Position numbers and translations under genes: made by a program. From the sequence record PQ505130.1: 49,656 nucleotides of DNA, one strand, 5' to 3'. Below are positions 673 through 31,208 of the stretch, piece by piece. The stretch is from Klebsiella phage vbKpUKJ_2. Under the pieces are notes generated by a model. It saw only the letters and a program-made list of their open reading frames with translations. It was not told the origin of the DNA and searched no databases. The first letter of the stretch is position 1, and every line of letters starts with the position of its first letter.

Positions 673-750
673 CTGAAAAACTCCTGTTTGTGTATTTGGC
701 TTAACGAGATGAAGAATATCACGAATCGTTAAGCCGTCAAAGGTTTTTTT

Positions 751-7918: not shown

Positions 7919-8494
7919 TTAATTTTTTACGTGGTGGCAAGGTTCGCCATCTTTGACCTCACCCCACGCCCGGCGCTTGTTCCGCTCCAGCTTTTCCGCC
8001 ACCGCTTCAGCCAACTGCTCATCACTGAACCCGGCGCGGCGCGTTGCGTCCCATACCAACATGAGGATATCGGCGAACTCGCTAATGTCATCCGGCGCTT
8101 CGGCGGCCTCAATCGCTTCTTTCGCCAGGTGTTTGAGCGGCCCGACTGGCCCAACGTTGCCAAACTGGCGATCCGACCACTCCGCGTGCTGCGCCCGAAT
8201 ATTGGTGAACGGGTCGGCCTTCACTTCCGGCTCCGCCCGCAGGCATTGAAAGTCACTCCACGTCTTCGGGTTGTGCTGCATCTCACGCAGGCTCGCTAAA
8301 GCTCCGTTGATATCCATACCTTCCGGCCAGTTCACCTTGAACGCTTCAGGCTTGCGGAGATACTCGACAAGATCACCACCAAGAACGGTTTGCTGCCTAA
8401 TTGCTCGCTCTTTGGTGTCGCAGATGAGGCGGCGCGATTTGCGCCCCTCGTTGGTTCCAATTGTGTAAGTCAGTACCCAAATTTTGTTGCTCAT
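7919..8494 (-). CDS. MazG-like nucleotide pyrophosphohydrolase (dATP/dGTP diphosphohydrolase-like)
   Basis: C-terminal region EWSDRQFGNVGPVGPLKHLAKEAIEAAEAPDDISEFADILMLVWDATRRAGFSDEQLAEAV resembles all-alpha MazG/DUF550-type NTP pyrophosphatases. ATG at 8494 is ATGA-coupled to the upstream gene. Confidence 0.4.
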   Translation of the reverse strand: MSNKIWVLTYTIGTNEGRKSRRLICDTKERAIRQQTVLGGDLVEYLRKPEAFKVNWPEGMDINGALASLREMQHNPKTWSDFQCLRAEPEVKADPFTNIRAQHAEWSDRQFGNVGPVGPLKHLAKEAIEAAEAPDDISEFADILMLVWDATRRAGFSDEQLAEAVAEKLERNKRRAWGEVKDGEPCHHVKN

Positions 8495-8703
8495 TCTTCC
8501 ATAACCTCGCATTCGTCTTTGCTCACGCTGATATTGTCACCAGCCTGGATAAACTCGCTATTGCGCGGAGCGATCACACAGTAGGAGCCGTCATTGAAGT
8601 GGCCGTCGACCTCAAGAACGTCGCCGATTTTGAGGCCGCATTCTTCCAGGGTAATTGAGCCGTCGCCGTTGGTGGTGTCGATTTTGGTGATTTTGATTTT
8701 CAT
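8491..8703 (-). CDS. hypothetical protein
   Basis: 70 aa, RBS GGAG, preceded by dyad promoter cassette. Confidence 0.35.
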   Translation of the reverse strand: MKIKITKIDTTNGDGSITLEECGLKIGDVLEVDGHFNDGSYCVIAPRNSEFIQAGDNISVSKDECEVMEE

Positions 8704-8734
8704 TGCTGTAACTCCGTTTCGTTTCGATGGGGTA

Positions 8735-8778
8735 ACTATACCAGCTTACCCCTGATCGGTTTTAGCAATTCGTGCTAT
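8735..8778 (-). promoter_or_regulatory. dyad promoter cassette (TAGCA-N5-TGCTA / TTGCTA, 22-nt spacer, TATAGT)
   Basis: Minus strand reads ATAGCACGAATTGCTAAAAC, then hairpin GGGGTAA..TTACCCC, then TATAGT, then TTACCCCATCGAAAC. It is 32 nt upstream of the ATG at 8703. Confidence 0.5.
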
Positions 8779-8974
8779 TTGGCAGGCCATCCATTACTTT
8801 CAGTTTGACCCACTCGACGCGCCCCTCCATTTCTGCGATCTTGCGCTCGAATTGTGCGCTTTCCTGATACGGCCTTACCCGCCAGCGCTTACCACCTTCA
8901 TCGCACCAGTAATAGAATTTACCCCTGAATTGCACGTTGTAGGTGAAGCCGTTGTGCCACATTTTGATGTTCAT
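8762..8974 (-). CDS. hypothetical protein
   Basis: ATG at 8974 with RBS GGTGAGG. Confidence 0.35.
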   Translation of the reverse strand: MNIKMWHNGFTYNVQFRGKFYYWCDEGGKRWRVRPYQESAQFERKIAEMEGRVEWVKLKVMDGLPNSTNC

Positions 8975-8982
8975 GCGTCGCC

Positions 8983-9207
8983 TCACCACTTAAAATTTCC
9001 GGAAATGATGATGCCACCAACGGCGGAAAGTGTAATCCAGGGCCAGCAAAGCACAGGATAAAGATCTTCTTTGTCGGTAGAATCCGCAGATTTCAGGAAG
9101 GCCCGCATGAGGAAACAGCCGCACGCATACAGGGCCAGAATAAGAACCGCCAGGGCAATAACTGCGTAAATCATGATGTTTTTCCTTGTCTTTGATTGGG
9201 TTGCCAT
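8983..9207 (-). CDS. hypothetical membrane protein (two TM segments)
   Basis: Hydrophobic stretches IMIYAVIALAVLILALYACG and ITLSAVGGIIISG. Confidence 0.35.
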   Translation of the reverse strand: MATQSKTRKNIMIYAVIALAVLILALYACGCFLMRAFLKSADSTDKEDLYPVLCWPWITLSAVGGIIISGNFKW

Positions 9208-9239
9208 GAAGCAACCCCGATTCGTGTTTGTGGTTCGTG

Positions 9240-9560
9240 CTATTGCTGGAGCTTTGCAAAAGCGTCGGCCATCATGCGCAAAACTCGCGCGTGATCTTCA
9301 ACGTCATAGCCAGGTTCGGTGCGCATGATTTCCCGAACATTCTCGATCGTGGCGATAGCCGCCTGAAGTTCACCAGTCAGGAGCGCAACCTGCTTTTCAA
9401 GCTCCGCGATTCGTGAGAATGGTTCGCGCATAAATGATTCGCACGAGGCATCACTAAGCGCCCAGCCGATCCCGGCGCGAATAACGGCGGCTAACAGCGG
9501 GTCGTCGTCTTTGGCGAAGTTGTCGGACGGGATCAGGTGTATGATTTGTGTGGTGTTCAT
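9240..9560 (-). CDS. hypothetical protein
   Basis: ATG at 9560 (MNTTQIIHL) downstream of dyad cassette. The longer ORF upstream merely translates the promoter cassette. Confidence 0.35.
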   Translation of the reverse strand: MNTTQIIHLIPSDNFAKDDDPLLAAVIRAGIGWALSDASCESFMREPFSRIAELEKQVALLTGELQAAIATIENVREIMRTEPGYDVEDHARVLRMMADAFAKLQQ

Positions 9561-9592
9561 GGTTAGGCTCCATCTCTTGTTAGTGTGGGGAT

Positions 9593-9636
9593 AGTATGCA
9601 CCATCCCCGGACGTTCGTTTTAGCAATTCGTGCTAT
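9593..9636 (-). promoter_or_regulatory. dyad promoter cassette
   Basis: ATAGCACGAATTGCTAAAAC, 22 nt, CATACT, with hairpin GGGGATGGTGCATACTATCCCC. Confidence 0.45.
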
Positions 9637-10124
9637 CAAAGGGCGTCTAATTCCGCCTCAATGAATTCGTACCACTCGTGGCCGTTAACTGGATCGTGTT
9701 CGGTGCCATGCAGCCAGTCCGTGTGGGTGGAACAGAATTCGCCGGATTTGTTGAAATAAAAGTCGGCCCATGACCGCGCCCAATCGCCTACGCCAGCGAA
9801 CGTGCCGAACTTGCGGATGTATGCGTCTGTATAACCGCGCTCCTTCGCAATGCGCTTCAGTGCGCGAACCAGCAACTTGCGCGGAGACGCCTTTGACACT
9901 TTCCGCAGGTGGAACAGAATGTGATCGTCATCCGGCCCCACGCGGATTGTTAGATCTTCGTCGATATCTATCGGGTTGACGATGTATTCGTTCAGGTATC
10001 CGCCCTGGATTACGTGAATCTTGCCGCAAGATCCTTTAACCTCGACGGCATCGAATACGCTCCCGATAAGATGCCGCTCTCTTCCGCGTGCCGCATTTAC
10101 TACCATGAGTTTTACGGTTTTCAT
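9636..10124 (-). CDS. hypothetical protein
   Basis: 162-aa ORF with consistent coding frame. Confidence 0.4.
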   Translation of the reverse strand: MKTVKLMVVNAARGRERHLIGSVFDAVEVKGSCGKIHVIQGGYLNEYIVNPIDIDEDLTIRVGPDDDHILFHLRKVSKASPRKLLVRALKRIAKERGYTDAYIRKFGTFAGVGDWARSWADFYFNKSGEFCSTHTDWLHGTEHDPVNGHEWYEFIEAELDAL

Positions 10125-10342
10125 TAGCGGATCTCCTTCACCTGGTGGGATTCGAGAAGGTTGGTTACTTCACGGATGCCGCAGTCCTCGAATTCCTCTT
10201 CGGCCCCTGCCGCCACTCTTAACCTGGTGAACCCGGCGTCATCGTCGATTGCGACTTCGATAACCTGCTCGCTCGAAAGCTCGATGTATGCACAGCCGTA
10301 GGAATTCAGTTCTTCCAGCAGTGCGATTAAATTATCGTTCAT
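10124..10342 (-). CDS. hypothetical acidic protein
   Basis: 72 aa, highly acidic. Preceded by dyad cassette. Confidence 0.35.
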   Translation of the reverse strand: MNDNLIALLEELNSYGCAYIELSSEQVIEVAIDDDAGFTRLRVAAGAEEEFEDCGIREVTNLLESHQVKEIR

Positions 10343-10382
10343 TGCGTTGCTCCTGATTGGATTGTTTCACTTCAGTAACGCC

Positions 10383-10426
10383 ACTTTATCAAATGACGTT
10401 ACGGCAGTTTTAACAAAAAGTGCTAT
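10383..10426 (-). promoter_or_regulatory. dyad promoter cassette
   Basis: ATAGCACTTTTTGTTAAAAC, 22 nt, TAAAGT. Inverted repeat GTAACG..CGTTAC brackets the -10. Confidence 0.45.
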
Positions 10427-10608
10427 TCTTTTTCGCCGCTGAACGCTGCCCGATACCCACGGCGGAACCCGTTAATCTCAGAAAGGCGGCATACGCCAAT
10501 GATGATGCAAATCATGCCGATCGCCTGCCAGCCTACGTGGTCATGCAGTGCCAGGCCGCCCAGGAAGAAGGCCCAATACAGCGCGAGTTTCTTTTTGCTT
10601 GCTTTCAT
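10423..10608 (-). CDS. small membrane protein
   Basis: 61 aa with hydrophobic core LALYWAFFLGGLAL. Confidence 0.3.
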   Translation of the reverse strand: MKASKKKLALYWAFFLGGLALHDHVGWQAIGMICIIIGVCRLSEINGFRRGYRAAFSGEKE

Positions 10609-10850
10609 ACTTTCACCTCAAATAGAACGTTGTTTTCATATGGTCTATTGGCGTACATTGCGATCTTTTCGTCCGGCATACGGCAGGCTGGCCAGAATTC
10701 GCCCTCTTCCGTGGTTCCCTGGTCGTCCTGCAAAATCCATACTTCATCAAGGCCGGGGCCGAACCTGGCGTCATACTCGCGGCCAGGTGTGAAATAGGTG
10801 GATAGCGGCGAATAGCCAGCGTGCGTACAAATTACTTTTACCGTTTCCAT
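10605..10850 (-). CDS. hypothetical protein
   Basis: 81 aa, start and stop overlap neighbouring genes. Confidence 0.35.
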   Translation of the reverse strand: METVKVICTHAGYSPLSTYFTPGREYDARFGPGLDEVWILQDDQGTTEEGEFWPACRMPDEKIAMYANRPYENNVLFEVKV

Positions 10851-11152
10851 TAGTAGATCCCGTTAGTCCAAACATAGCCGCATTCGATTATCTCGCGCGG
10901 ACTAACCTTTTTCGGCGTTGGGTTAATCCCGTCACCGCCAGTGTGGAACCCTGCCCCATACGCAAAATGAACCTGCTTTGCGAACAGGTCGCCGCGTGCC
11001 TGGATGTAAAGGCGGTTGCGCATAGCTAGGCCTCTAAGCGTGTTAACCTGATCGATGTGGTCGCCTTTGACCTTCGAGATCTTGCACATCACTGGCTTTT
11101 CGCCGAATTGCCCGGTTAAGCAGTGGCGATCGAAGTCTGATAAACGTATCAT
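10850..11152 (-). CDS. hypothetical protein
   Basis: 100-aa ORF, overlaps neighbouring genes. Confidence 0.35.
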   Translation of the reverse strand: MIRLSDFDRHCLTGQFGEKPVMCKISKVKGDHIDQVNTLRGLAMRNRLYIQARGDLFAKQVHFAYGAGFHTGGDGINPTPKKVSPREIIECGYVWTNGIY

Positions 11153-11475
11153 CCAACTACCTCCATGCAGGAATCATAACCGAAGAGATCCGTCACCATC
11201 TTCCAGGCGTCGTCGTCGCTCAGTGCTTTGGCGTCGAAGTTCTTGACGTGCTTAACGTGCGTCCAGTGGTAAGAGCCATCCGCCCAATGGGAATGGGTTT
11301 GTGAGTTGCCATTAAAGCGCCCGAATCTTTCAATGCTCAGGCCAACACCGCTTGAGTGGCGCTTGAACCACAAGATAGCCACGTTGCCAACTTCGTTGAC
11401 GTGAATAAGTCTCACCGCGCGAACCCCAATCGTGGCGTACAGGTTATTGGGTAGCGGCCTGGTCGTGCGAATCAT
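11149..11475 (-). CDS. hypothetical protein
   Basis: ATG at 11475 with RBS GAGGTGA. Confidence 0.35.
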   Translation of the reverse strand: MIRTTRPLPNNLYATIGVRAVRLIHVNEVGNVAILWFKRHSSGVGLSIERFGRFNGNSQTHSHWADGSYHWTHVKHVKNFDAKALSDDDAWKMVTDLFGYDSCMEVVG

Positions 11476-11485
11476 ATTTATCACC

Positions 11486-11857
11486 TCAAAGTTGATTTGC
11501 GAAAATATGCCAAACATGATCTTTTGGCGTGCGCTTCATGAGCTTGTGCGCCTTGCGTGCCATGCGCTTATAGTCGCGGGCGGTAAGTTTCGTTGGGTCG
11601 GCAACGAATGATTCGACAATCAACCCCTCGTAATGGTATTCCGGCTGCCATTCCCGATGGGTTCGCCACTCGTTGAAAGTGGTTAGCGGGAGGACGGAAT
11701 GCAAGTCACTGTGAAGGTGCTCCCCTCGCTCGCCGTAATGGAAAGCTCCGCGCATTTTGCCATCATTGCCTACGTGCAAAAGGTGAATGCGGCTTTTCTT
11801 GCCTTCGAAGTTGGTTCCGACGATGGCGACAACTGCGTTTTTGACGACCTGTTTCAT
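11486..11857 (-). CDS. hypothetical protein
   Basis: 123 aa. Dyad cassette 30 nt upstream. Confidence 0.4.
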   Translation of the reverse strand: MKQVVKNAVVAIVGTNFEGKKSRIHLLHVGNDGKMRGAFHYGERGEHLHSDLHSVLPLTTFNEWRTHREWQPEYHYEGLIVESFVADPTKLTARDYKRMARKAHKLMKRTPKDHVWHIFANQL

Positions 11858-11886
11858 TGTGAATCTCCGTTGTTTGGTGTATGGCT

Positions 11887-11930
11887 ATTATGCCCGATCT
11901 GCTGACCGGGCGTTTAGCAAAAAGTGCTAT
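11887..11930 (-). promoter_or_regulatory. dyad promoter cassette
   Basis: ATAGCACTTTTTGCTAAAC, 22 nt containing hairpin GCCCGGTCAGCAGATCGGGC, then CATAAT. Confidence 0.45.
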
Positions 11931-12128
11931 TCAGAAACCGAGCGCCTCACGCTCCAGGTTGGCCAGTGACGGAAAGCTGAATTTTGTAACGTGGTACGAG
12001 CCGCCCACATAGCCGGAAATGCTGATATTGTTGAACTCAACCTCAACACTGATAATCTTCATGTTCTTGCTGAAGGCGTACATTGCAAGCGCACGGTGCG
12101 CCCGCGCCAGGAATTCGAATTGGTTCAT
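11931..12128 (-). CDS. hypothetical protein
   Basis: 65-aa ORF. Confidence 0.3.
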   Translation of the reverse strand: MNQFEFLARAHRALAMYAFSKNMKIISVEVEFNNISISGYVGGSYHVTKFSFPSLANLEREALGF

Positions 12129-12382
12129 TTAAAGATCGCCCCTTTGATTTTGTTCCAGAAAGCGAAAGGATTGCGCTTCGGTTTCAGTTCCACGATATCA
12201 TGATCGAAGAATCCGCGATGCTTGCCGCAAAGCAAAGGCTTAACGCCATCCGTCACGAGGTCGCCAATGAAGAACCATTTGCCGCCATCCATGAAGTAAA
12301 GGCCGACGCATACGCCGGGCGCGGCATGAGTTGCGGTATCTGGCAGGCTGTATACCCTGCCGCGAGATTTGAATTGCTGCAT
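12125..12382 (-). CDS. hypothetical protein
   Basis: ATG at 12382 with RBS AAGGAGA. Confidence 0.4.
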   Translation of the reverse strand: MQQFKSRGRVYSLPDTATHAAPGVCVGLYFMDGGKWFFIGDLVTDGVKPLLCGKHRGFFDHDIVELKPKRNPFAFWNKIKGAIFK

Positions 12383-12428
12383 TATCCTGTCTCCTTGCAT
12401 AATTTGGTCGTTAATCGACCTCGTGATA

Positions 12429-12472
12429 ATTATGCCCGATCCTCTGACCGGGCGTTTAGCAATGCGTGCTAT
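12429..12472 (-). promoter_or_regulatory. dyad promoter cassette
   Basis: ATAGCACGCATTGCTAAAC, 22 nt with hairpin GCCCGGTCAGAGGATCGGGC, then CATAAT. Confidence 0.45.
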
Positions 12473-12789
12473 TTCAGGCCGCGAAGGTCAATCTTCGACT
12501 TTTCCCAATCAGGGAAGCGAGGCATTTCGCCCACCTGAACCATTTTGTTTCCGCCCGGCCCCTTATCCACCCATGAATCAGGCGAGTAGCTCAGTAGGCG
12601 AACATTTTCGGCGGTCGACTCATAGGCCCAAATTGAGCCGTCGGCATCAATGGCAACCGTGTTGGCCCAAACTGGCACGTCAAGCGACTGCATATCGAAC
12701 GTGCCAGGGATGTTAATCTGGAAGGCTACAACGTGGCGCTGCGTGATGGTAGCCACTACTTGCTCGCCGGATTTAACTTCGTGAATCAT
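12469..12789 (-). CDS. hypothetical protein
   Basis: ATG at 12789 with RBS AAGGAGAAC. Confidence 0.4.
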   Translation of the reverse strand: MIHEVKSGEQVVATITQRHVVAFQINIPGTFDMQSLDVPVWANTVAIDADGSIWAYESTAENVRLLSYSPDSWVDKGPGGNKMVQVGEMPRFPDWEKSKIDLRGLK

Positions 12790-12799
12790 TGCGTTCTCC

Positions 12800-13012
12800 T
12801 TACAGGAACATTCCGGCCAGGCGCAGGCGGTTAATGATATCATCACGCTTGACGCGCAGGCCATCATAGTAATCTTCCAGTTGTGCATCCCATGACGGCA
12901 GGTCAAGCATAAGATTCATCTCGTTGCACACCACCTTCAGCGCGTGGAAGTGTTGCTCAACCGCGCGACGGTGAAATGCTGCATTGAGTGGGTTGTTGTG
13001 GTTGCCGATCAT
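12800..13012 (-). CDS. hypothetical protein
   Basis: 70 aa, RBS AGAGGAG. Dyad cassette upstream. Confidence 0.4.
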   Translation of the reverse strand: MIGNHNNPLNAAFHRRAVEQHFHALKVVCNEMNLMLDLPSWDAQLEDYYDGLRVKRDDIINRLRLAGMFL

Positions 13013-13040
13013 GTTTATGCTCCTCTGTTTCGATGGGGTA

Positions 13041-13084
13041 ATAATACCGCATTACCCCGATCGGGTTTTAGCAAAAAGTGCTAT
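13041..13084 (-). promoter_or_regulatory. dyad promoter cassette
   Basis: ATAGCACTTTTTGCTAAAAC, 22 nt, TATTAT, TTACCCCATCGAAAC. Hairpins CCCGATCGGG and GGGGTAAT..ATTACCCC. Confidence 0.5.
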
Positions 13085-13290
13085 CTTTCCACCTCGCGCA
13101 TCTCGCCAACCGAAAGATAATAAGCGATATCCAGGCGGCTCATTGTGGGGTGGGGCCAGCCGCACTCATGCCAGATAACATCGCCCTCGCCTTTAGTCCA
13201 CATGGTTTCGCCGTCCCAGCGCCAAAGTCGGTTATTGAGGCGCGATCCGTAGACCGCACCAGGTTTTACATCGCTCGCCTTAAAATTCAT
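13081..13290 (-). CDS. hypothetical protein
   Basis: ATG at 13290. An alternative GTG start at 13338. Confidence 0.3.
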   Translation of the reverse strand: MNFKASDVKPGAVYGSRLNNRLWRWDGETMWTKGEGDVIWHECGWPHPTMSRLDIAYYLSVGEMREVER

Positions 13291-13432
13291 AGTCGACAAC
13301 CCCGAACTCGTTAACAATCTGCGCCTTGTAAAAGCCACCGTTTGCCGCCAGGTTGTAGCAAGCCGCCACGGTCTCGAACTCGCGCACTTCTGGCTTGCTG
13401 TTTTCGTGTTCCCAGGTGATCAGAGTAATCAT
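13280..13432 (-). CDS. hypothetical small protein
   Basis: ATG at 13432 with RBS GAGGAAAG, downstream of dyad cassette. Confidence 0.3.
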   Translation of the reverse strand: MITLITWEHENSKPEVREFETVAACYNLAANGGFYKAQIVNEFGVVDYEF

Positions 13433-13464
13433 TTCGCTTTCCTCGGTTCGTTGTCGATGAAGAG

Positions 13465-13508
13465 ATAATACCCGATCTCCCTGACCGGGTTTTAACAAAA
13501 AGTGCTAC
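13465..13508 (-). promoter_or_regulatory. dyad promoter cassette
   Basis: GTAGCACTTTTTGTTAAAAC, 22 nt with hairpin CCCGGTCAGGGAGATCGGG, then TATTAT. Confidence 0.45.
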
Positions 13509-13584
13509 TTGTTGCTCAGGTGGATGATAAACGCCGCCAGGAGCAATCCGCAATTGACACCGATGGAAAACAGGATAAAGGCGT

Positions 13585-13890
13585 TCATTGTGGATAATCC
13601 AGGCTAATGATGTTGTCGGCTTCATCGGCCATCATCTCCAGGACGTTCGACGCGCCGATGAACTCCGGCTTCGTCACCGCCTGGCCCGTCTCGGTGATAT
13701 GTTGAATATACGATTCAGAATTTGGAAGAAACGCCATCAAAAGCAAGTCACCTGTAACGCATTCCAGGGCGGTTGGATTTTCGTCGTCCGATGCACTGGC
13801 GACGGCGTCGATAACTTCCTGTTCGTCGATTAGCGTGCTGCCCAGGCGCATCGGTGCGGCGGGGTCGTTTTGGTCTGGATATAGTTTCAT
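13585..13890 (-). CDS. hypothetical highly acidic protein
   Basis: 101 aa with many D/E and few basic residues. Second gene of the leftward early operon. Confidence 0.4.
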   Translation of the reverse strand: MKLYPDQNDPAAPMRLGSTLIDEQEVIDAVASASDDENPTALECVTGDLLLMAFLPNSESYIQHITETGQAVTKPEFIGASNVLEMMADEADNIISLDYPQ

Positions 13891-14426
13891 GATTGTGCTC
13901 CTGTGATTCTGGCTTTCAGCGCCATTGTGTAACCGTTGTAAAGCAGGCCTTTTGGCATCACTTCGTCAATAATGGCAAGGATTTTTTCCCGTTCAGAGAT
14001 AGCGCCCTGCCGCCTGTATGCTTCCGCCTCCAGGTGTGAGCCAGTCCTTTCGTCGAACTCAGTAAAGACGGAGATTAACCCCGCCCCCAGGCTCACGCGC
14101 AACACCTCGCCCGGCTCCAGTAGTCTCAGTAACGGCCTGCGGAAATGGTTGTCGACCGGATTAACGCCGAACTTCTCCACGAACTCCTCCGCCGTCATCT
14201 GGATACGCCGCCCGCCATCCAGGAACATGCGCCGGATCTCGGAAGAGCGGTTGCCAGTGAATGTGCCTTCCGTCTTCGCTGCTTCCTGGCTCCGTCCGGC
14301 TGGCCTGGCGGCGTCGCCAAACGTGATGGATTGCAGCCATTCATGGTAAGCGGCTTGCTTTTCTGCGTCGTACCGCATCCACTCGGACACGTCGACTTCT
14401 TCGAACTCATAGCCTTTATATTGCAT
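13887..14426 (-). CDS. hypothetical early protein
   Basis: First gene of the leftward early operon. ATG at 14426, or GTG at 14441. Confidence 0.4.
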   Translation of the reverse strand: MQYKGYEFEEVDVSEWMRYDAEKQAAYHEWLQSITFGDAARPAGRSQEAAKTEGTFTGNRSSEIRRMFLDGGRRIQMTAEEFVEKFGVNPVDNHFRRPLLRLLEPGEVLRVSLGAGLISVFTEFDERTGSHLEAEAYRRQGAISEREKILAIIDEVMPKGLLYNGYTMALKARITGAQS

Positions 14427-14473
14427 TTGTGTTTCCCCCACATTTACGGCGTTTGGTAATGTTTCGGAAGGTG

Positions 14474-14502
14474 ATAATACAGGCCGCAGGCCGCGCCGTC
14501 AA
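14474..14502 (-). promoter_or_regulatory. sigma70-like early promoter TTGACG-17-TATTAT (leftward)
   Basis: Minus strand TTGACG (14497-14502), 17-nt GC-rich spacer with palindrome GGCCTGCGGCC, then TATTAT (14474-14479). About 40 nt upstream of the ATG at 14426. Confidence 0.5.
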
Positions 14503-14514
14503 AGGGTTTCGGCG

Positions 14515-14752
14515 TGTTTGGTAAGATTTGCTGTCATCCCCTATATATCCCTATATACATTTTTCGCGGCGGAACATCTAAAAATTATGGCTTGCGCAAG
14601 GAGAATCCATAACCCACCCGGAGAAATCTTACCAAACATATATAAAGATAAAGAGTAATAATAATAATATTGTTATTTATCATATACTTACTATCTATAT
14701 ATGGGCTTATATTGGTCATTTTTTGCGCAATTTTTAGGTAAGATTATTCCCC
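14515..14752. repeat. AT-rich region with GGTAAGAT iterons and left copy of 85-bp inverted repeat
   Basis: TTTGGTAAGATTT at 14517-14529. Its inverse is at 14626-14638. TTAGGTAAGATT at 14736-14747. Segment 14617-14703 is the reverse complement of 29767-29853 at about 90% identity. Confidence 0.6.
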
Positions 14753-14962
14753 CCCCACACTCCCACACGCCGCAAGTGTTGGTGAAACACAGCTCCAGTT
14801 CTGCCAGCTTCGATCGGCAAATTGCGTGCATGGTGCATACATTTATGCAATTCGTTGCAAATCCCTAAACACTCCCACAAGTCATTGCACAAAATGAAAC
14901 AATCAAAAGTAATCATGATTCGTCAAAACTAATCACCAGGGAATCAAGTGCAATCACCATCT

Positions 14963-14988
14963 ATTCCACCATTCCGAATCGGTGGAAT
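14963..14988. promoter_or_regulatory. perfect 8-bp inverted repeat ATTCCACC-N10-GGTGGAAT in the early rightward control region
   Basis: Seen directly. Flanked by seven AATCA pentamers within 14900-15000. Confidence 0.35.
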
Positions 14989-15005
14989 AATCAGCAATCG
15001 CAGGA

Positions 15006-15049
15006 ATAGCATTTTTTGTTAAAAGCCATCCGATCGACTTTGCTATGAT
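15006..15049 (+). promoter_or_regulatory. dyad promoter cassette (rightward)
   Basis: ATAGCATTTTTTGTTAAAAG, 22 nt, TATGAT. Drives 15089. Confidence 0.45.
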
Positions 15050-15088
15050 GACTTCAACGAAACGAATTGAGCCAAAGGAGCTAAAGCT

Positions 15089-15370
15089 ATGAAACTTCAA
15101 CGCGAATCAATCAACCTGGGCAGCGAGTATAACGGCAAGTGGAACTTCGTTATCATGGATAGCGACGCCGACAAGATCGAAGCGGTTGAGGAAGCGTTAT
15201 GCGAAATGGCCACTGACTTCTCTGTCGGCGGAGAAGAGAAAACCTGGGGCGACTACTGCGACCAATGCCCTTGCTATGATGATGGGTATGGCTCCGGCTT
15301 CTGGATTCCGGTCGAAGATGTTCCGGCCTTCAAAGAGGCGTACAAGGCAGCGAAGAAAGCAGTGAAATAA
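15089..15370 (+). CDS. hypothetical protein
   Basis: 93 aa, RBS AAGGAG. Confidence 0.45.
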   Translation: MKLQRESINLGSEYNGKWNFVIMDSDADKIEAVEEALCEMATDFSVGGEEKTWGDYCDQCPCYDDGYGSGFWIPVEDVPAFKEAYKAAKKAVK

Positions 15371-15411
15371 GCACGAATTGCTAAACGCCGGGCCGAAAGG
15401 CCTGGTATAGT
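15368..15411 (+). promoter_or_regulatory. dyad promoter cassette
   Basis: AAGCACGAATTGCTAAAC, 22 nt with GAAA-loop hairpin GGCCGAAAGGCC, then TATAGT, then TAACCCATCGAAACC. Confidence 0.5.
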
Positions 15412-15442
15412 TAACCCATCGAAACCAGTCAGGAGATTAACC

Positions 15443-15631
15443 ATGAAAGCATTTGCGGATGTAGTCGTCGGGGATAAAATTCAATATGGCGCAAGCGATT
15501 TGTTCCGTACCGTAACCGATATCGAGAAGGGTCGCGGCGTCAACGGGTTTACTGTCTTCGTGGTGCTCGACGGCGTTGCACGCTTTGCGGTTGACGCTCG
15601 TGATTGGGTTTTCTGCATCGAGAAGGGCTAG
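15443..15631 (+). CDS. hypothetical protein
   Basis: 62 aa, RBS AGGAG. Confidence 0.4.
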   Translation: MKAFADVVVGDKIQYGASDLFRTVTDIEKGRGVNGFTVFVVLDGVARFAVDARDWVFCIEKG

Positions 15632-15633
15632 GT

Positions 15634-15873
15634 ATGAGGAAACGGCGGGCCGGGGAGGTGGTTTGCACCTGCGATGCTTACCACTTCCCTCATCGAATGT
15701 TCGGCGGTTCATGCAACGGGATCGCCATTGTCATTGCCAGCGTTGGCGGCGCGGAGTGCCAGCATTGCCAGCTACTGAATAACGGTCGCTGCGAGGTGCT
15801 GGCGGGTATCGAGAACCCGATCGAATGCCATTACGTCGCCGACTTTATCCAACGAAACGAGGTTAAAATATAA
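15634..15873 (+). CDS. hypothetical Cys-rich protein (possible zinc binding)
   Basis: CTCDAYHFPH...CNG...ECQHCQ...RCE. Confidence 0.35.
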   Translation: MRKRRAGEVVCTCDAYHFPHRMFGGSCNGIAIVIASVGGAECQHCQLLNNGRCEVLAGIENPIECHYVADFIQRNEVKI

Positions 15874-16250
15874 TGCGAACAGTTACCATTTCGAACAGCT
15901 TTTCCTACATCATCGGATCGCCTGAAGAGCGTATCAGGGTCATCCGCGACAAGGCGACCAATGACGTTACCGATGCCTTCAGCGCTGCGGCTAAAGCTGC
16001 GATCACGCATTACTACGGTCGTGGCCCGGAAGAGTTCAGCGCAGACAGCGCGCCTTTCTTGGTTGTCAAAAAGGAAGGTGGTAATGTATGGCAAATCAAC
16101 GACAAGCAGACTGGCGAGTTTATTTTCGGATCGGTTCCGTGCCGGGTCGGTAGCAACGATGTTACCATTCAGGAACTCGGCGAAAAAGAACCTCTCGTTC
16201 AGCGCACGATCTACATCAGCCAGGATTACACGACCTGCGTTCCGGCATAG
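15873..16250 (+). CDS. hypothetical protein
   Basis: 125-aa ORF, start overlaps the previous stop. Confidence 0.4.
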   Translation: MRTVTISNSFSYIIGSPEERIRVIRDKATNDVTDAFSAAAKAAITHYYGRGPEEFSADSAPFLVVKKEGGNVWQINDKQTGEFIFGSVPCRVGSNDVTIQELGEKEPLVQRTIYISQDYTTCVPA

Positions 16251-16290
16251 CACGTTTTGCTAAAACAACATTGCGGGATAGTGGCATACT
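16247..16290 (+). promoter_or_regulatory. dyad promoter cassette
   Basis: ATAGCACGTTTTGCTAAAAC, 22 nt, CATACT inside hairpin GGGATAGTGGCATACTGTCCC. Near copy of the 9593-9636 cassette. Confidence 0.45.
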
Positions 16291-16322
16291 GTCCCCACAC
16301 CAACAAGCGAAGGAGTTACACA

Positions 16323-16556
16323 ATGAACAAACCAAAAACAAACCTTATTCTTGCTGCGCTGGAGAAGAACGGCTCTGTAGTTATGCGCCTGAATCGTGAA
16401 TGCGGTTATTCGCAGATCACGATCACGAAGGCTGTCAATGGCGGTTATGTTGTTGGTACTGTTCCTGGCGGCGTGTTAAAACGCGCTCAGATTGATAGCG
16501 TAACTGCAACAATCAACCTTTACTGCATGTTTATTGAAAAATGGTGGACGGCATGA
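16323..16556 (+). CDS. small HTH-like protein (candidate transcription regulator)
   Basis: 77 aa, RBS AAGGAG. Segment VMRLNRECGYSQITITKAVNG has a helix-turn-helix-like pattern. Confidence 0.35.
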   Translation: MNKPKTNLILAALEKNGSVVMRLNRECGYSQITITKAVNGGYVVGTVPGGVLKRAQIDSVTATINLYCMFIEKWWTA

Positions 16557-17245
16557 CAGACAAGGTTATTTACTGCATGTTCGACGGCTCCGGCATCATG
16601 GGCCTGCCGTGGGCTATCAAGGGATGCAAGGTGTACTGTTTCAATGCCGACTCCGGCGACCACGGAGAATATAGCATCCGAATGGTTCACCCCAATATCC
16701 AGTATGTTAACATTTGGATTGACAAGGATTTTGACGTGAAGCGATCTATTCTAGGCATTCCAGATCCCGACTTCATTTTCGCTTTCCCGTCATGCACGCT
16801 GTTAGCGCATAGCGGAATCAAGCACGTAAGGCAAGATAATGACGTTCTATCAGCCGCAGATGACGCGAAGATGGTCGAACGCCTGGGCAACGAGTATGGT
16901 TGCCCCTGGATGGTCGAAAACCCGGTCGGAAAATTGTCGACACTATGGCGCAAGCCTGACTTCTATTTTCACCCGCGCGACTTCGGCGGCTATGTTTCTC
17001 CGAACGAGCCTGTGTGGCATCCCAAAATGCCCCACTGTGACAATTACACGAAGAAAACGTGCATATGGCACGGAAACGGTTTTGTCGAACCGAAACGGCT
17101 CCCGCCGCCGGATGGAGTAGAAGGCGTGAATTTCTTTTGGGCCTGGAAGTTTTTGGGCGGAAGGTCAGAAAGGACTAAAATGCTGCGCTCCATTACTCCG
17201 CGAGGTTTTGCCCGCGCCGTGTTCCAGGCGAATTATCGAGAATAG
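16541..17245 (+). CDS. minimal DNA cytosine-C5 methyltransferase-like protein
   Basis: Motifs in canonical C5-MTase order: CMFDGSGIMG (motif I, FxGxG), FAFPSCTLLAHSG (motif IV, PC), WMVENPVG (motif VI, ENV). At 234 aa it is short for the family. Start at 16541, or at 16553 which is ATGA-coupled. Confidence 0.4.
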   Translation: MVDGMTDKVIYCMFDGSGIMGLPWAIKGCKVYCFNADSGDHGEYSIRMVHPNIQYVNIWIDKDFDVKRSILGIPDPDFIFAFPSCTLLAHSGIKHVRQDNDVLSAADDAKMVERLGNEYGCPWMVENPVGKLSTLWRKPDFYFHPRDFGGYVSPNEPVWHPKMPHCDNYTKKTCIWHGNGFVEPKRLPPPDGVEGVNFFWAWKFLGGRSERTKMLRSITPRGFARAVFQANYRE

Positions 17246-17285
17246 CACGAATTGCTAAAACTACCCGGCGAAAGTCGGGTAGCAT
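17242..17285 (+). promoter_or_regulatory. dyad promoter cassette
   Basis: ATAGCACGAATTGCTAAAAC, 22 nt with hairpin CTACCCGGCGAAAGTCGGGTAG, then TAGCAT, then TACCCCATCGAAACG. Confidence 0.45.
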
Positions 17286-17317
17286 TACCCCATCGAAACG
17301 CAACGGAGTAAACGGAA

Positions 17318-17521
17318 ATGAAATTTATTATCTTGATGATGTTAACTATTTTGTGTATGTCCGGGCCTGGTGGTTTTATCTTTGCCGTCATGCTGTTAGT
17401 TGTTGCAGGGATTATTGATGTTCGCCATCATCATGTAATGACCGATTTAAGACTTAACCGCCTGATTAATGATCTTAAAATTGCTTGCGAGAACATAGAA
17501 ATAAAGGTGGTGAAGAAATGA
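17318..17521 (+). CDS. small membrane protein (AT-rich island gene 1)
   Basis: 67 aa with two hydrophobic helices LMMLTILCMSGPGGFIFAVMLLVVAGII. Local GC clearly below genome average. Confidence 0.4.
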   Translation: MKFIILMMLTILCMSGPGGFIFAVMLLVVAGIIDVRHHHVMTDLRLNRLINDLKIACENIEIKVVKK

Positions 17522-17700
17522 TATCTCAAAAACTCGCCGAAGTATGCCGCGAAGTTCTCAGGATGAATAATGGCGGCGCAACCCTGGCTGCGATGCAAAA
17601 TAAAATTGAGTCGCACGTTGGCTTTAAATTGAGTTGCAGAAATAAAGCTGACTTTCTGGATCTGGTTAACCTGTATATCGAGATAGGAGAAGGAAAATAA
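17518..17700 (+). CDS. hypothetical small protein (AT-rich island gene 2)
   Basis: 60 aa, ATGA overlap with gene 1. Confidence 0.35.
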   Translation: MISQKLAEVCREVLRMNNGGATLAAMQNKIESHVGFKLSCRNKADFLDLVNLYIEIGEGK

Positions 17701-18138
17701 ATGGCGAAGTCAATCAAGATTAAATGCACGTCAAGCCGCGCTGTTAATATCCACGAAAATAACCTTTATTCCGCCCGCGTCGACGATGAAGGAAATGTGT
17801 CAATGATGGTATATGACAGCGTCGAACTGAAGAAGAAGCGCGTTATTTTGTCGGTAGGCGTTAGCGGCGAGTTGTTTATTGCTGGCGACGGCGGAGCGGC
17901 GATTGCGACGTTCATCGAACTCAAAACCAAAACGCTAAAATGCGTAGGCCTTGACCATAGCAACCCGATGAAAAAATCCTTCAGCGTCGGCAAGCGCTAC
18001 CAGGTAGAAAGCGGTCGTGCGCTCGGTGCGGTTGCTGGATATATCTTCGATCGTGATGGATGCCGCTGGACGCTGTACCGCGAGGAAGTTGGCTTCAGTG
18101 TATCGGACGGAACGACTTTCGAAGCTAAATACCTGTGA
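17701..18138 (+). CDS. hypothetical protein (AT-rich island gene 3)
   Basis: 145 aa. TAAATG junction with gene 2. Confidence 0.4.
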   Translation: MAKSIKIKCTSSRAVNIHENNLYSARVDDEGNVSMMVYDSVELKKKRVILSVGVSGELFIAGDGGAAIATFIELKTKTLKCVGLDHSNPMKKSFSVGKRYQVESGRALGAVAGYIFDRDGCRWTLYREEVGFSVSDGTTFEAKYL

Positions 18139-20355: not shown

Positions 20356-20386
20356 AAAAAGGGGCATTACGCCCCTTTGTTTTTTC
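20356..20386. terminator. bidirectional rho-independent terminator
   Basis: A5 then GGGGCATTACGCCCC then T-rich run. Sits between the convergent blocks. Confidence 0.6.
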
Positions 20387-24428: not shown

Positions 24429-24458
24429 GGCGTTTGCTCCTGATTGGTTGATGGCGTA

Positions 24459-24502
24459 ATAATACCCGCACGCGGCGGGTATTGTTTAGCAATTAGTGCT
24501 GT
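24459..24502 (-). promoter_or_regulatory. dyad promoter cassette
   Basis: ACAGCACTAATTGCTAAAC, 22 nt with hairpin CCCGCCGCGTGCGGG, then TATTAT. Confidence 0.45.
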
Positions 24503-25567: not shown

Positions 25568-25597
25568 ATGTTTCTCCGTTCTTCGTTTCGATGGGGT

Positions 25598-25642
25598 AAT
25601 AATACCCGGCTTTCGCCGGGCGGTTTTAACAAAAAGTGCTAT
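25598..25642 (-). promoter_or_regulatory. dyad promoter cassette
   Basis: ATAGCACTTTTTGTTAAAAC, 23 nt with GAAA-loop hairpin CCCGGCGAAAGCCGGG, then TATTAT, then TTACCCCATCGAAAC. Confidence 0.5.
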
Positions 25643-28092: not shown

Positions 28093-28120
28093 TTGTCATT
28101 CGCATAGTTGCGTGTATAAT
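28093..28120 (+). promoter_or_regulatory. sigma70-like promoter TTGTCA-16-TATAAT for the HTH gene
   Basis: TTGTCA at 28093-28098 and TATAAT at 28115-28120. Confidence 0.45.
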
Positions 28121-28158
28121 ACATGGAACATTTTATCAGGTTTAACAAAAAATGCTAT
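28116..28158 (-). promoter_or_regulatory. dyad promoter cassette for helicase, overlapping the divergent sigma70 promoter
   Basis: Minus strand ATAGCATTTTTTGTTAAAC, 21 nt, TATTAT (28116-28121). The -10 hexamers of the two divergent promoters overlap. Confidence 0.45.
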
Positions 28159-28170: not shown

Positions 28171-28572
28171 ATGGAACAAATGGCAAAGATTGATAAGAGA
28201 ACCTTGAACGGCAATAACGGAACATCGCGCGGGAAAGATAAGAAGAAACGCAAGCGACCGACTGGTTACTACGTGCTGAAGGATGAGGTTCGCGCCGGGT
28301 TGACTGCGCGGATGGAGCTGGTTATTGATGCCTTCGGTGGTATCGCGGGAACGGCAAAAGAGTTGGGGGTTAGCATCCAGGTTGTTCAGCAGTGGCGTAA
28401 GCGCGGCATGATCTCAGCCGATGGCGCTTATCTCGTACATAAGAGCTACAGACGGAACAATTGCAAAGGTTTCCGCGCCTCATTCTGCCGACCAGATTTA
28501 AGGTTTGACAGCAACGGCAAGCCAGTTACGCGACGATGCGACCGCCGGGAAATGCTCCGCGTAGTCCGATAG
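28171..28572 (+). CDS. XRE/Cro-like HTH transcriptional regulator
   Basis: Classic HTH segment TAKELGVSIQVVQQWRKRGMI. 133 aa. Has its own sigma70 promoter. Confidence 0.5.
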   Translation: MEQMAKIDKRTLNGNNGTSRGKDKKKRKRPTGYYVLKDEVRAGLTARMELVIDAFGGIAGTAKELGVSIQVVQQWRKRGMISADGAYLVHKSYRRNNCKGFRASFCRPDLRFDSNGKPVTRRCDRREMLRVVR

Positions 28573-28592
28573 CACAATTTGTCTAAACACTA

Positions 28593-28635
28593 AACGCCTG
28601 CCGGGTTATCATTCTCGTGTAGGCGTTTTTTATTT
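28593..28635 (+). terminator. rho-independent terminator
   Basis: AACGCCT...AGGCGTT hairpin followed by TTTTTTATTT. A degenerate dyad copy GATAGCACAATTTGTCTAAAC sits just upstream at 28568-28588. Confidence 0.45.
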
Positions 28636-28647
28636 GGGGGTTACGAC

Positions 28648-30026: not shown

Positions 30027-30069
30027 ATAGCACTTTTTGACTTGCGCCGGGAATCGTCATGCGTATACT
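30027..30069 (+). promoter_or_regulatory. dyad promoter cassette (TTGACT variant)
   Basis: ATAGCACTTTTTGACTTG, 21 nt, TATACT, TAACGCAACGAAACC. Confidence 0.45.
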
Positions 30070-30102
30070 TAACGCAACGAAACCACAAATGGAGCAATAT
30101 CA

Positions 30103-31149
30103 ATGGCTGAAGCAATTTTCAGGGCATACACCAGCAGTGAATTGACTAACGAGCAATATCACGATCCTAACTCCTGGTGCGCGGAATACGTTAGCGGCTC
30201 AAGCCTCGGCGAGATTTACGCAACATCCCCGGCGCACTGGAAATTCAAGGTGCGCGAGGAAACAGCCGCGCTGGCGTTCGGCACTTGCTCGCATACCTGT
30301 ATGCTTGAGACCGCAAAATTTAATGGCGAGTATCTGCGGGCGACTTCTCCGGGCGAGGTTAAGGATCTGATTACGTCTAAGTCGGCATTGTCTGCGAAGC
30401 TGAAAGCGTGTGGCCTGATTGGGACGTCCAACAAGGATTACCCGGAACTTCTGGAAATGGCATATCGCGCCGGGATTGACGTAAATGTTTGGTGGGCGAT
30501 TGAACTTTGCGACGAAAGCGCCGCTATGAACTCCGGGCGCAAGCTGGTTAAGGATGTTGATTTCGATGCCGTTGTTCAAATGCGAAGCGTGATGTTGGCC
30601 AACCCGCGACACGCCGCCTGTATCGAATCACCTACCGCACAGCGTGAATTGTCAATCTTCGGTGAGATCTTCGGCGTCAAGGTTAAGGTTCGACTCGATC
30701 ATGTTGACGTAGTTTCCGATCCCGAACTCATCAAAGAGTGGGGGTTTAACCCGGATGAAGTTTTCGAGGTTGTGGTGATCACAGATTACAAAACCACGCA
30801 ATCATCCAAGCCGGACGAATTCGGGCGACTCGCTTTCAATTTGGGCTACTATCTCAAGATGGCATTGCAGCGTGATCTGTTCGTGAAGACCTACAACGAA
30901 AAACGCCCGGTAGTTGTCAGACTGCTAACGCAGGAGAAAAAATCACCGTTTGCTCCGCTGGCGTTCACCCTGACCAGCCAGCAGATCGAGATTGGTCGCA
31001 AGCAGTATCAAAGCGTGATTCATCAGTATGCGGAATGCGTGAAGCATGATTCATGGCCATCATATGAGTCAAACGCGGCGGAAGTTGTTTTGCCTACTCC
31101 GCAGTTTGTGAAATACATGTTCCCGGACGTATACGGCACAAATAGCTAA
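30103..31149 (+). CDS. PD-(D/E)XK recombination exonuclease
   Basis: Motif ITDYKTT...K typical of RecB/Cas4/YqaJ-type nucleases. Immediately upstream of ERF. Confidence 0.45.
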   Translation: MAEAIFRAYTSSELTNEQYHDPNSWCAEYVSGSSLGEIYATSPAHWKFKVREETAALAFGTCSHTCMLETAKFNGEYLRATSPGEVKDLITSKSALSAKLKACGLIGTSNKDYPELLEMAYRAGIDVNVWWAIELCDESAAMNSGRKLVKDVDFDAVVQMRSVMLANPRHAACIESPTAQRELSIFGEIFGVKVKVRLDHVDVVSDPELIKEWGFNPDEVFEVVVITDYKTTQSSKPDEFGRLAFNLGYYLKMALQRDLFVKTYNEKRPVVVRLLTQEKKSPFAPLAFTLTSQQIEIGRKQYQSVIHQYAECVKHDSWPSYESNAAEVVLPTPQFVKYMFPDVYGTNS

Positions 31150-31208
31150 ACACTGGTGCGCACTTGTGATATAGTGCGCATTACCAATCAGGAAAAGGAA
31201 ACTTTATC

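Follow-up and report, generated by a model that had tools for sequence, protein, structure and literature searches.

T1-like phages encode neither an RNA polymerase nor a sigma factor, and canonical σ70 promoters are nearly absent from their genomes (PMC11447400). When the phage TLS was re-annotated in 2024, only three such promoters were found, and a 21-nt direct repeat, aaATAGCACnnnTTGnTAAAA, was described at 21 places, oriented with transcription and ∼76 nt before start codons; similar repeats in T1, Rtp, and Rogue1 were mentioned as an unpublished observation of the TLS authors, and stoperators, enhancer sites, or UP-like elements were proposed as their function (PMC11447400). Here, this element is analyzed in the Klebsiella phage vbKpUKJ_2 (sequence record PQ505130.1), the whole stretch of 49,656 nt being referred to as the window. 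It holds the whole, or nearly the whole, genome of a T1-like phage of Klebsiella (Webervirus, Drexlerviridae), ∼93% identical at positions 8000–18000 to KpKT21phi1 and to hundreds of relatives. The TLS repeat is the same element: its orientation and its distance of ∼76 nt to the start codons match. The TLS study linked it neither to a −10 hexamer or start site nor to hairpins or a marbox, and did not cover Webervirus. The repeat as such was, therefore, already known; its identity as a marbox regulon, to the extent the literature shows, was not. No paper linking marbox, Rob, MarA, or SoxS to T1-like phages was found, nor was a transcription start site map of a Drexlerviridae phage, or data from reporters in activator-deficient hosts or from in vitro transcription.

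Class II marbox promoters carry the marbox in forward orientation, overlapping the −35 region and centered at −41/−41.5, and show no −35 consensus (PMC12052159, PMC8811837, PMC10268841, PMC9638938). The two recognition elements of the marbox are GCAC and YAAA (PMC9638938, PMC8811837). The phage cassettes share with promoters of this class (E. coli and Klebsiella micF as the archetype, and also lpxC P2, lpxL P1, and rfaY P1) the same asymmetric 20-bp forward box with its center at ∼−41. Read directly from E. coli K-12, micF has its marbox ACAGCACTGAATGTCAAAAC at 134–153, followed by an 18-bp gap, the −10 hexamer TAGAAT at 172–177, and the annotated 5′ end at 185; the 20 + 18 + 6 layout and the AAAAC tail are common to micF and the cassettes. 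Relative to the predicted start, the cassette box spans −50 to −31 with its center at −40.5, or at −41.5 if the start is placed one base further on, as in micF. The core sequence of the phage boxes is within the range of the best host marbox sites. In contrast to the degenerate and scattered mar/sox/rob sites of the host, the phages hold 13–20 near-consensus copies in a virulent genome of 49 kb and, unlike in host class II promoters, a hairpin in the gap is usual and the sequences of leader and start site are conserved.

A 2010 account by Arbiol et al. reportedly describes T4-type PeSL (promoter-early stem-loop) cassettes that flank small early open reading frames (ORFs) and mediate modular shuffling. 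Recombination between repeats as a route of gene gain and loss has been proposed for the T4 PeSLs. They and the present cassettes are promoter-plus-stem-loop repeats among small early genes, and an indel bounded by two cassettes was found here as well. The PeSL, however, is a plain σ70 early promoter with a −35 element and has its hairpin upstream of the promoter, whereas the cassette has a putative host-activator site in the place of the −35 and its hairpin inside the promoter. In T4 middle promoters, the MotA box, recognized with AsiA as helper, is placed at −30, 11–13 bp from the −10. As in the cassettes, a box replaces the −35 of a σ70 promoter, and TTGCTA resembles TGCTT; the MotA box is centered at −30, whereas the phage box is centered at −41 and followed by an 18-bp gap. 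Domain scans of the window proteins found no homologue of MotA or AsiA. Sites of a host global regulator in front of phage genes, tying phage development to the state of the host, are likewise represented by the CtrA boxes of Alphaproteobacteria phages, for which deferment of lysis is proposed as the effect (PMC9437464); there, the regulator family and the host clade are different ones.

The repeated cassette and its box

A sequence-only reading of the window had listed at least 15 promoter cassettes and a degenerate copy, composed of a dyad TAGCA-N5-TGCTA, a spacer, and a −10 hexamer. At each listed position, a copy facing the downstream gene was present, and a further full copy, missed earlier, was found at 31133–31182 (+) before erf. 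The exact dyad occurred 7 times in the window (0.03 expected) and the 20-mer ATAGCACNNNTTGCTAAAAC, with up to three mismatches, 14 times (0.14 expected); a matrix scan set 14 strong copies apart and also recovered a half copy at 30027 and the degenerate one at 28569. Every copy points at the next gene, and each is located either between genes or across the stop codon of the gene before it. The copies lie 72–90 nt (median 76) ahead of a start codon that has a Shine–Dalgarno sequence. Fourteen of them have 18 nt, and three have 17 nt, from the 20-nt box to a −10 hexamer with A2 and T6, which is equivalent to the 21–23 nt from TTGCTA to the −10 given earlier. When conservation in the family was checked, T1, Rtp, TLS, and Webervirus were found to hold 13–20 strong copies per genome. 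The half-sites TAGCA/TGCTA are not invariant, as had been claimed: only seven copies have the perfect dyad, and in five TGTTA replaces TGCTA. We conclude that the element is a genuine repeat, found at about 16 predicted promoters of the phage.

For the promoter architecture, cassettes from the window, five complete genomes, and 120 viral-contig fragments among the matches listed were reduced to a non-redundant set of 176 and aligned without gaps, anchored on the box (positions 0–20). Beyond the box, the resulting logo contained information at fixed sites: T34, T36, and G37 (81%), corresponding to T−17, T−15, and G−14; TATAAT at 39–44 (A2 89%, T6 87%); and C at 50 (74%) and A at 51 (82%), corresponding to C−1/A+1 with the start 7 nt past the hexamer. 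These were followed by an A-rich leader, a purine-rich Shine–Dalgarno region at ∼64–70, and the start codon at ∼76. The −35 position (−35 to −30) read AAAACn, with little or no −35 consensus. The −10 at fixed distance, with G−14 and C−1/A+1, supports the earlier view of the repeats as promoter cassettes. It also holds that TTGCTA is not a −35 element, as its spacer would be 22 nt and the hexamer 17 nt upstream of the −10 is AAAACn, and that the geometry is that of class II activation, the conserved box lying at about −41, counted from a predicted start, and 17–18 nt ahead of the −10. By its sequence, the cassette is an extended −10 promoter with a textbook C−1/A+1 predicted start. Canonical −35/−10 pairs in the early regions were no commoner than in shuffled sequence; two good ones are present there, the pir promoter (28093–28120) and one at 14502–14474, ahead of the gene with which the leftward arm begins. 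The cassettes could fire at once if a host factor reads the box, and the label "middle" that they had been given is without support.

The box pattern, ATAGCAC-nnW-TTG-Y-T-AAA-AC, coincides with the site that MarA, SoxS, Rob, and RamA bind, which are monomeric dual helix-turn-helix (HTH) activators, and its 15-nt core agrees with the asymmetric marbox position by position. The layout, too, is that of a marbox, with the recognition elements GCAC and YAAA, a 7-bp A/T-rich spacer, and a box of ∼20 bp; the variable center (AAA, TTT, or GAA), on which the TLS authors based their subgroups, is the A/T-rich spacer between GCAC and YAAA. A host matrix of 15 columns was derived from 87 Salmonella chromatin immunoprecipitation sequencing (ChIP-seq) sites of MarA/SoxS/Rob/RamA (Table 1 of PMC10268841) and contained no phage data. 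With this matrix applied to both strands, the top 15 matches in the window were 14 boxes of the sequence-only reading and the box at 31136, with scores between 15.2 and 18.6, whereas the host sites under their own matrix reached a maximum of 18.5 and a median of 11.5. At a score of 15 or higher, the window had 15 matches, compared with 0.23 in shuffles and none in lambda. The E. coli consensus GCAHWWWWTGYYAAA (PMC6900184), with at most one mismatch, also gave 15 matches (1.06 expected), and 15 of the 15 were cassettes. In the box at 24499 (cassette 12), the 15-nt core GCACTAATTGCTAAA is identical to the host consensus. The frequency matrices of the 176 phage boxes and of the host sites correlated with r = 0.88 in register, but only with ≤0.23 when shifted and 0.46 when reversed.

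A dimer reading a 15-bp dyad, as assumed previously, is at variance with the conservation of the box, which is asymmetric: G4 is found in 100% of the boxes, whereas its partner position 14 is C in 60% and T in 39%. C7, T11, T12, and A17–A19 are conserved without a symmetric counterpart, all of them being marbox positions, and C7 and T11 are conserved yet not mutually complementary. In the boxes of the Pantoea myovirus AAM37 (described below), the dyad is broken and GCAC...R-Y-Y-AAA alone survives. The box appears to be an asymmetric marbox for a monomeric activator of the MarA/SoxS/Rob type, and the dyad to be incidental.

The copies in the window are listed here with their predicted marboxes and −10 hexamers and with their host matrix scores; the promoter of pir and an orphan box are appended.

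8728–8778 (−), cassette 1: marbox ATAGCACGAATTGCTAAAAC, 18-nt gap, TG-extended −10 TATAGT, predicted +1; around the −10, hairpin GGGGTAA/TTACCCC; start codon 75 nt from the first base of the box; score 17.4
9586–9636 (−), cassette 2: marbox ATAGCACGAATTGCTAAAAC, 18-nt gap, −10 CATACT, hairpin GGGGAT/ATCCCC around the −10; score 17.4
10376–10426 (−), cassette 3: marbox ATAGCACTTTTTGTTAAAAC, 18-nt gap, TG-extended −10 TAAAGT; hairpin GTAACGTC/GGCGTTAC (one G-U pair) around the −10; score 16.3
11880–11930 (−), cassette 4: marbox ATAGCACTTTTTGCTAAACG, 18-nt gap with hairpin CCCGGTC-AGCA-GATCGGG, −10 CATAAT; score 17.7
12422–12472 (−), cassette 5: marbox ATAGCACGCATTGCTAAACG, gap hairpin, −10 CATAAT, start codon 90 nt from the box; score 16.1
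13034–13084 (−), cassette 6: marbox ATAGCACTTTTTGCTAAAAC, −10 TATTAT, hairpin around the −10; score 17.7
13458–13508 (−), cassette 7: marbox GTAGCACTTTTTGTTAAAAC, gap hairpin followed by TATTAT, terminator-like in the terminator scan; score 16.3
15006–15056 (+), cassette 8: marbox ATAGCATTTTTTGTTAAAAG, TG-extended −10 TATGAT, hairpin absent; ahead of the gene that opens the rightward arm (DUF5417); score 15.2
15368–15418 (+), cassette 9: marbox TAAGCACGAATTGCTAAACG, gap hairpin CCGGGCC-GAAA-GGCCTGG, TG-extended −10 TATAGT; score 17.4
16247–16297 (+), cassette 10: marbox ATAGCACGTTTTGCTAAAAC, TG-extended −10 CATACT, hairpin around the −10; score 16.5
17242–17292 (+), cassette 11: marbox ATAGCACGAATTGCTAAAAC, gap hairpin with GAAA loop, −10 TAGCAT; score 17.4
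24452–24502 (−), cassette 12: marbox ACAGCACTAATTGCTAAACA, gap hairpin, −10 TATTAT; score 18.6, above every host site
25592–25642 (−), cassette 13: marbox ATAGCACTTTTTGTTAAAAC, gap hairpin CCCGGC-GAAA-GCCGGG, −10 TATTAT; score 16.3
28109–28158 (−), cassette 14, of the helicase gene: marbox ATAGCATTTTTTGTTAAACC, 17-nt gap, −10 TATTAT at 28116–28121; score 15.2
28569–28619 (+), degenerate cassette before the primase gene: marbox ATAGCACAATTTGTCTAAAC with a one-base insertion; −10 TATCAT 18 nt from the box, within the loop of a true terminator hairpin, then TTTTTT; score 8.8
30027–30076 (+), half cassette before recE: left element ATAGCAC alone retained, TTGACT in place of the right element, 17-nt gap, −10 TATACT; score −3.4
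31133–31182 (+), cassette 16, before erf: marbox ACGGCACAAATAGCTAAACA, 17-nt gap, TG-extended −10 TATAGT with TGCGCA arms around it; score 17.0
28093–28120 (+), pir promoter: canonical σ70, TTGTCA-N16-TATAAT
716–735 (+), weak orphan box ATATCACGAATCGTTAAGCC: antisense to the late genes, adjoining the major head gene

Other known elements were compared with the cassette and rejected. In a σ54 (−24/−12) promoter, TGGCAC-N5-TTGC would be expected, whereas TAGCAC-N3-TTGC is 2 bp shorter and has AG instead of GG; the strong −10 and C−1/A+1 lie 18 nt further downstream. CCCCAT, as in σ32 promoters, is present after the −10, but its partner CTTGAAA is absent at the correct spacing. None of the sites of Fis, IHF, OxyR/LysR (T-N11-A), SlyA (TTAGCAAGCTAA), ArcA, and CRP fits in register. 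Stoperators of the mycobacteriophage L5 type, which are numerous oriented repressor sites within transcription units and keep no constant relation to a promoter, do not agree with strong copies that all have a −10 at 17–18 nt and a start codon at ∼76 nt, and the invariant G4, C5, C7, and G13 are unlike an UP element, the A/T-rich site for the RNA polymerase alpha subunit's C-terminal domain (α-CTD) at −38 to −59. The dyad as an RNA hairpin was discarded because the AAM37 variants break it.

Candidate readers of the box

We consider it fairly likely that each cassette is a class II MarA/SoxS/Rob (marbox) σ70 promoter, with the host as the most probable source of the activator. The phage would thus appear to place the majority of its non-structural genes under these host regulators. 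In the mechanism that we infer, which comprises the binder of the box, its activating effect, the start sites, and the role of the hairpin, the marbox in forward orientation would take the place of the −35 element. Recognition element 1 (GCAC) would lie at ∼−47 to −44 and element 2 (TAAA) at ∼−36 to −33, separated by the 7-bp A/T-rich spacer and centered at ∼−41. After a gap of 18 bp would come the −10, mostly with G−14 (often TG), the start at C−1/A+1, and a ∼25-nt A-rich leader to the Shine–Dalgarno sequence. An activator on the box would recruit RNA polymerase via region 4 of σ70 and the α-CTD; such recruitment has been solved for micF with SoxS, RamA, and Rob. The hairpin would be encoded in the gap and the discriminator, positions left free by RNA polymerase and the activator, and the repeated modules would double as recombination points for gene gain and loss.

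A profile of MarA, SoxS, and the AAM37 protein had no match when run against the window, T1, Rtp, and TLS translated in six frames, and Pfam scans of 51 small and medium-sized window proteins yielded no AraC-type domain; the sole DNA-binding signature in these scans was the Cro/YdaS-like HTH of the homologue of Pir. Searching 50,697 phage records with MarA and the AAM37 protein (tblastn) gave no match in Drexlerviridae. Because Drexlerviridae encode no such protein, the host is most likely the supplier, with its activators of the responses to antibiotics and stress, Rob, MarA, SoxS and, in Klebsiella, RamA, as candidates. Rob is constitutively made but largely sequestered (PMC10268841).

AAM37 (Dibbivirus) stands outside Drexlerviridae but shares the T1-like replication module. 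It has about 9–11 cassettes of the same build (32329–47247), the boxes of which degenerate along marbox rules, and encodes gp49 (36758–37168), a stand-alone dual-HTH protein of 136 aa (HTH_18, E = 1.8e-14) whose best solved relative is MarA; RamA, Rob, and SoxS follow further down the list. The Pir-like gene of AAM37 is truncated to the HTH domain, and its helicase promoter region is without a box and contains the palindrome CTATCCAGATAG within the spacer of a canonical promoter.

Several points weigh against a marbox regulon fed by the host. MarA and SoxS are scarce in unstressed cells, in addition to the sequestration of Rob (PMC10268841), and class II activation by this family is modest, in the range of two- to fourfold for RamA (PMC8811837). 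How such proteins could strongly drive ∼20 promoters in a very fast lytic phage is not obvious, and it is mainly because the known activators are weak and low at basal level that caution is advised. The extended −10 may suffice for substantial activator-independent activity, the start site, and hence the −41 position of the box, is predicted from sequence, and a phage factor that evolved toward the same site could explain the match. AAM37 gp49 lacks the residues of helix 3 with which MarA contacts bases, and it is therefore not assumed that gp49 reads the box. Finally, the marbox model leaves unexplained why Pir raises the activity of T1 Pdam, a box promoter (PMC6737242). The broader claim that T1-like phages and Dibbivirus run most of their non-structural transcription via host Mar/Sox/Rob, such that 13–20 super-consensus marboxes require Rob, MarA, SoxS, or RamA, is made only tentatively, and we rather doubt it.

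Pir itself is encoded at 28171–28572, which is the homologue of T1 Orf23. In GFP reporters, T1 Pir raises expression from Pdam and Phol and lowers it from PrecE and from the promoter of pir itself (PMC6737242). Mapping of the published T1 fragments revealed a full box in Pdam and Porf65 and none in Phol and PrecE; in the pir fragment, a canonical promoter, TTGAAT-N17-TATAAT, precedes the box, which lies inverted within the 5′ leader. Two HTH candidates had been put forward as readers of the box. One, 16323–16556, has no recognizable DNA-binding domain; the other, 28171–28572, is disfavored because Pir also changes promoters without a box and because its recognition helix varies while the box is constant. 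Depending on the genus, the predicted helix is IQVVQQW, NQTVQGW, PQAVEEW, or LKTVWGW, the box being the same throughout; that of the AAM37 Pir-like protein, only 33% identical, is FSGVRSW. Pir is present in all 830 T1-like records, and a related-locus search with Pir gave only T1-like contigs. Its best-conserved parts lie outside the HTH (N-terminal DKRTxNGNNGTxRGKDKK and C-terminal GFRAxxCRPDxxFDxNGKP..RC), and both stretches are absent or altered in the AAM37 relative.

That a dimer of Pir, by virtue of its Cro-like HTH, binds TAGCA-N5-TGCTA at −42 and activates a middle regulon, the likeness to a marbox being coincidental, is in our view unlikely. The half-site centers are 10 bp apart and seven copies have the perfect dyad, but a symmetric reader is hard to reconcile with the unequal conservation of G4 and position 14 (C or T), with the conserved marbox positions C7, T11, T12, and A17–A19 outside any dyad, or with the AAM37 boxes, which lose the dyad and retain GCAC..RYYAAA. 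The retention of Pir in 830 of 830 T1-like records, with an HTH resembling that of P22 Cro, speaks for Pir, yet its recognition helix differs between genera without any change in the box. The response of T1 Pdam is in favor of Pir, as is the box in pir's own 5′ leader, which fits the published negative autoregulation (PMC6737242); the T1 hol and recE promoters, however, respond to Pir without having a box, and there is none in the region between the helicase and pir-like genes of AAM37. Also in favor of Pir, pir is among the few genes with a canonical promoter, as expected of the first gene of a cascade.

Should another phage protein, neither AraC-like nor Pir but a small early or an injected virion protein, read the box, perhaps remodeling RNA polymerase like T4 MotA/AsiA, most early ORFs would qualify as having no known function, and boxes scoring more tightly (15–18.6) than host sites (median 11.5) would be in keeping with a dedicated factor. 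A phage-specific element in the place of the −35 has a precedent in the MotA box of T4. We nevertheless regard this as quite improbable, and equally so its corollary that the marbox likeness reflects convergence upon the same surface of the DNA, or competition for it: Drexlerviridae and AAM37 have no candidate in common beyond the Pir-like protein, the proteins of replication and packaging, and two small ones that lack DNA-binding signatures, and convergence would have to be complete, as the host motif is matched at every informative position, in orientation, and in spacing. Very improbable, finally, is that the repeats are no activator sites at all but stoperators, generic enhancer sites, or UP-like elements, as proposed for TLS (PMC11447400), or mainly terminators or recombination linkers. 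The A/T tracts in the boxes, the frequent hairpins, and the indel bounded by two cassettes are compatible with such roles, and one T1 box (8362–8381, +) lies directly before the ribosome-binding site of terS with no −10 at the usual distance. The fixed distance to a −10 with G−14 and C−1/A+1, however, is the architecture of a promoter and not of a roadblock within a transcription unit, invariant GCAC and G13 are unlike an UP element, and ∼14% of the cassettes keep the box in the absence of a hairpin. Linker or terminator functions would be compatible additions, which leave the sequence of the box unexplained.

The arrangement of pir and the helicase gene is of no help in choosing among these readers. 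The −10 of pir (28115–28120, +) overlaps that of the helicase cassette (28116–28121, −), the two promoters facing each other, and the marbox of cassette 14 is inverted in the 5′ leader of pir; the arrangement in T1 is identical. To judge from this layout, it looks like a switch between the expression of both genes. Any protein bound to the box of cassette 14 would favor the helicase promoter and hinder pir, and because any such protein would give the same effect, the layout does not discriminate between the models. At the junction of pir and the primase gene (28593–28636, +), there is a strong intrinsic terminator, AAACGCCT...AGGCGTTT followed by TTTTT, with the −10 of the degenerate cassette in its loop; terminator and promoter are thus superimposed, and the designs in T1 and TLS are alike.

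Hairpins, recombination, and neighboring signals

For the stretch that begins where the box ends and extends slightly beyond the start, the mean minimum free energy (MFE) of the cassettes was −11.3 kcal/mol, compared with −4.9 kcal/mol in shuffled sequences. The hairpins take two forms: one is GC-rich, often has a GAAA loop, and lies within the 18-nt gap, ahead of the T-rich −10; the other has arms at ∼−22 to −15 and ∼−8 to −1 that enclose the −10. The sequences of the arms vary among cassettes but their complementarity is kept; when 3′ halves were swapped between cassettes, the mean MFE rose from −12.0 to −7.6. Either form was present in 128 of 149 cassettes (∼86%), whereas ∼14% had no hairpin yet kept the box. 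A test with fixed register (pairs 29–36/43–50) gave a weak signal, 3.92 versus 3.50, because the stems occupy variable registers. The sense strand folded better than the antisense strand (120 versus 51 cassettes, p = 3e-8), and among non-Watson–Crick pairs in the helices, G-T was more frequent than A-C (35 versus 9). Sense folding and the excess of G-T together indicate that the structure acts in sense RNA, that is, in read-through transcripts from the upstream gene. A DNA cruciform or an N4-like promoter hairpin was rejected on the grounds of the same sense-strand G-T wobble and better folding of sense RNA. In the T1 GenBank record, terminators but no promoters are annotated, and several of the "rho-independent terminators" are hairpins inside cassettes. 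We infer that the hairpins serve as terminators or 3′-end stabilizers of read-through transcripts; with a hairpin acting on upstream read-through, the cassette would therefore be a compact terminator-plus-promoter module.

Compared with the window, KpKT21phi1 contains an insertion of 671 nt (33724–34394) that consists of one small gene and one cassette. Positions 13030–13084 of the window (cassette 6) align with both of the cassettes that flank this insertion, which is a single clear case and fits gene gain or loss by recombination between cassettes. Other indels relative to KpKT21phi1 comprise whole small genes (window 8794–8981 and 11163–11482) and are not cleanly bounded by cassettes.

Strong hairpins were also found at 20358–20378, 32374–32395, and 35139–35160, where transcription converges. 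An example is AAAGGGGC..GCCCCTTT, called on both strands. Flanked by runs of A and T, these hairpins are likely bidirectional terminators. The canonical promoter at 14474–14502 (−), TTGACG-N17-TATTAT, precedes the first gene of the leftward arm (13887–14441; 184 aa, no known domain). Between the divergent arms, ∼550 nt (14460–15005) are devoid of convincing ORFs; to judge by synteny with both ends of T1 as recorded, the packaging start probably lies here. In T1, antisense boxes are found within the late (head/tail) block at 15086 and 18850 (−), the latter with the −10 hexamer TAAGAT 18 nt on, whereas Webervirus has only a decayed copy (716–735, +) at the equivalent place by the major head gene. 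Such boxes, as far as their orientation tells, could drive transcripts against the late genes.

Implications for T1-like phages

How T1-like phages are transcribed has been a standing question since the T1 genome was sequenced, and the marbox reading offers a testable mechanism that names the proteins. The group includes many candidates for therapy as well as notorious laboratory contaminants. Apart from the question of the activator, the cassettes constitute a compact and naturally diversified set of putative activator-dependent promoter-plus-terminator modules.

If the reading is true, gene expression of very common phages of E. coli and Klebsiella would be linked to the regulators that underlie multidrug efflux and the loss of porins, and phage development would be tuned by the antibiotic, bile, or oxidative-stress state of the host. 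Multidrug-resistant Klebsiella overexpressing RamA or MarA would then express the phage genes better, and replicating phage DNA would titrate these regulators and blunt the efflux and stress response of the host. Dibbivirus would be independent through its own MarA-like gene. The tolC gene belongs to the mar/sox/rob regulon. For TLS, whose receptor is TolC (PMC11447400), receptor supply and promoter activation would thus answer to the same host regulators. The finding would also bear on phage–antibiotic synergy and on host range among clinical strains that overexpress MarA or RamA.

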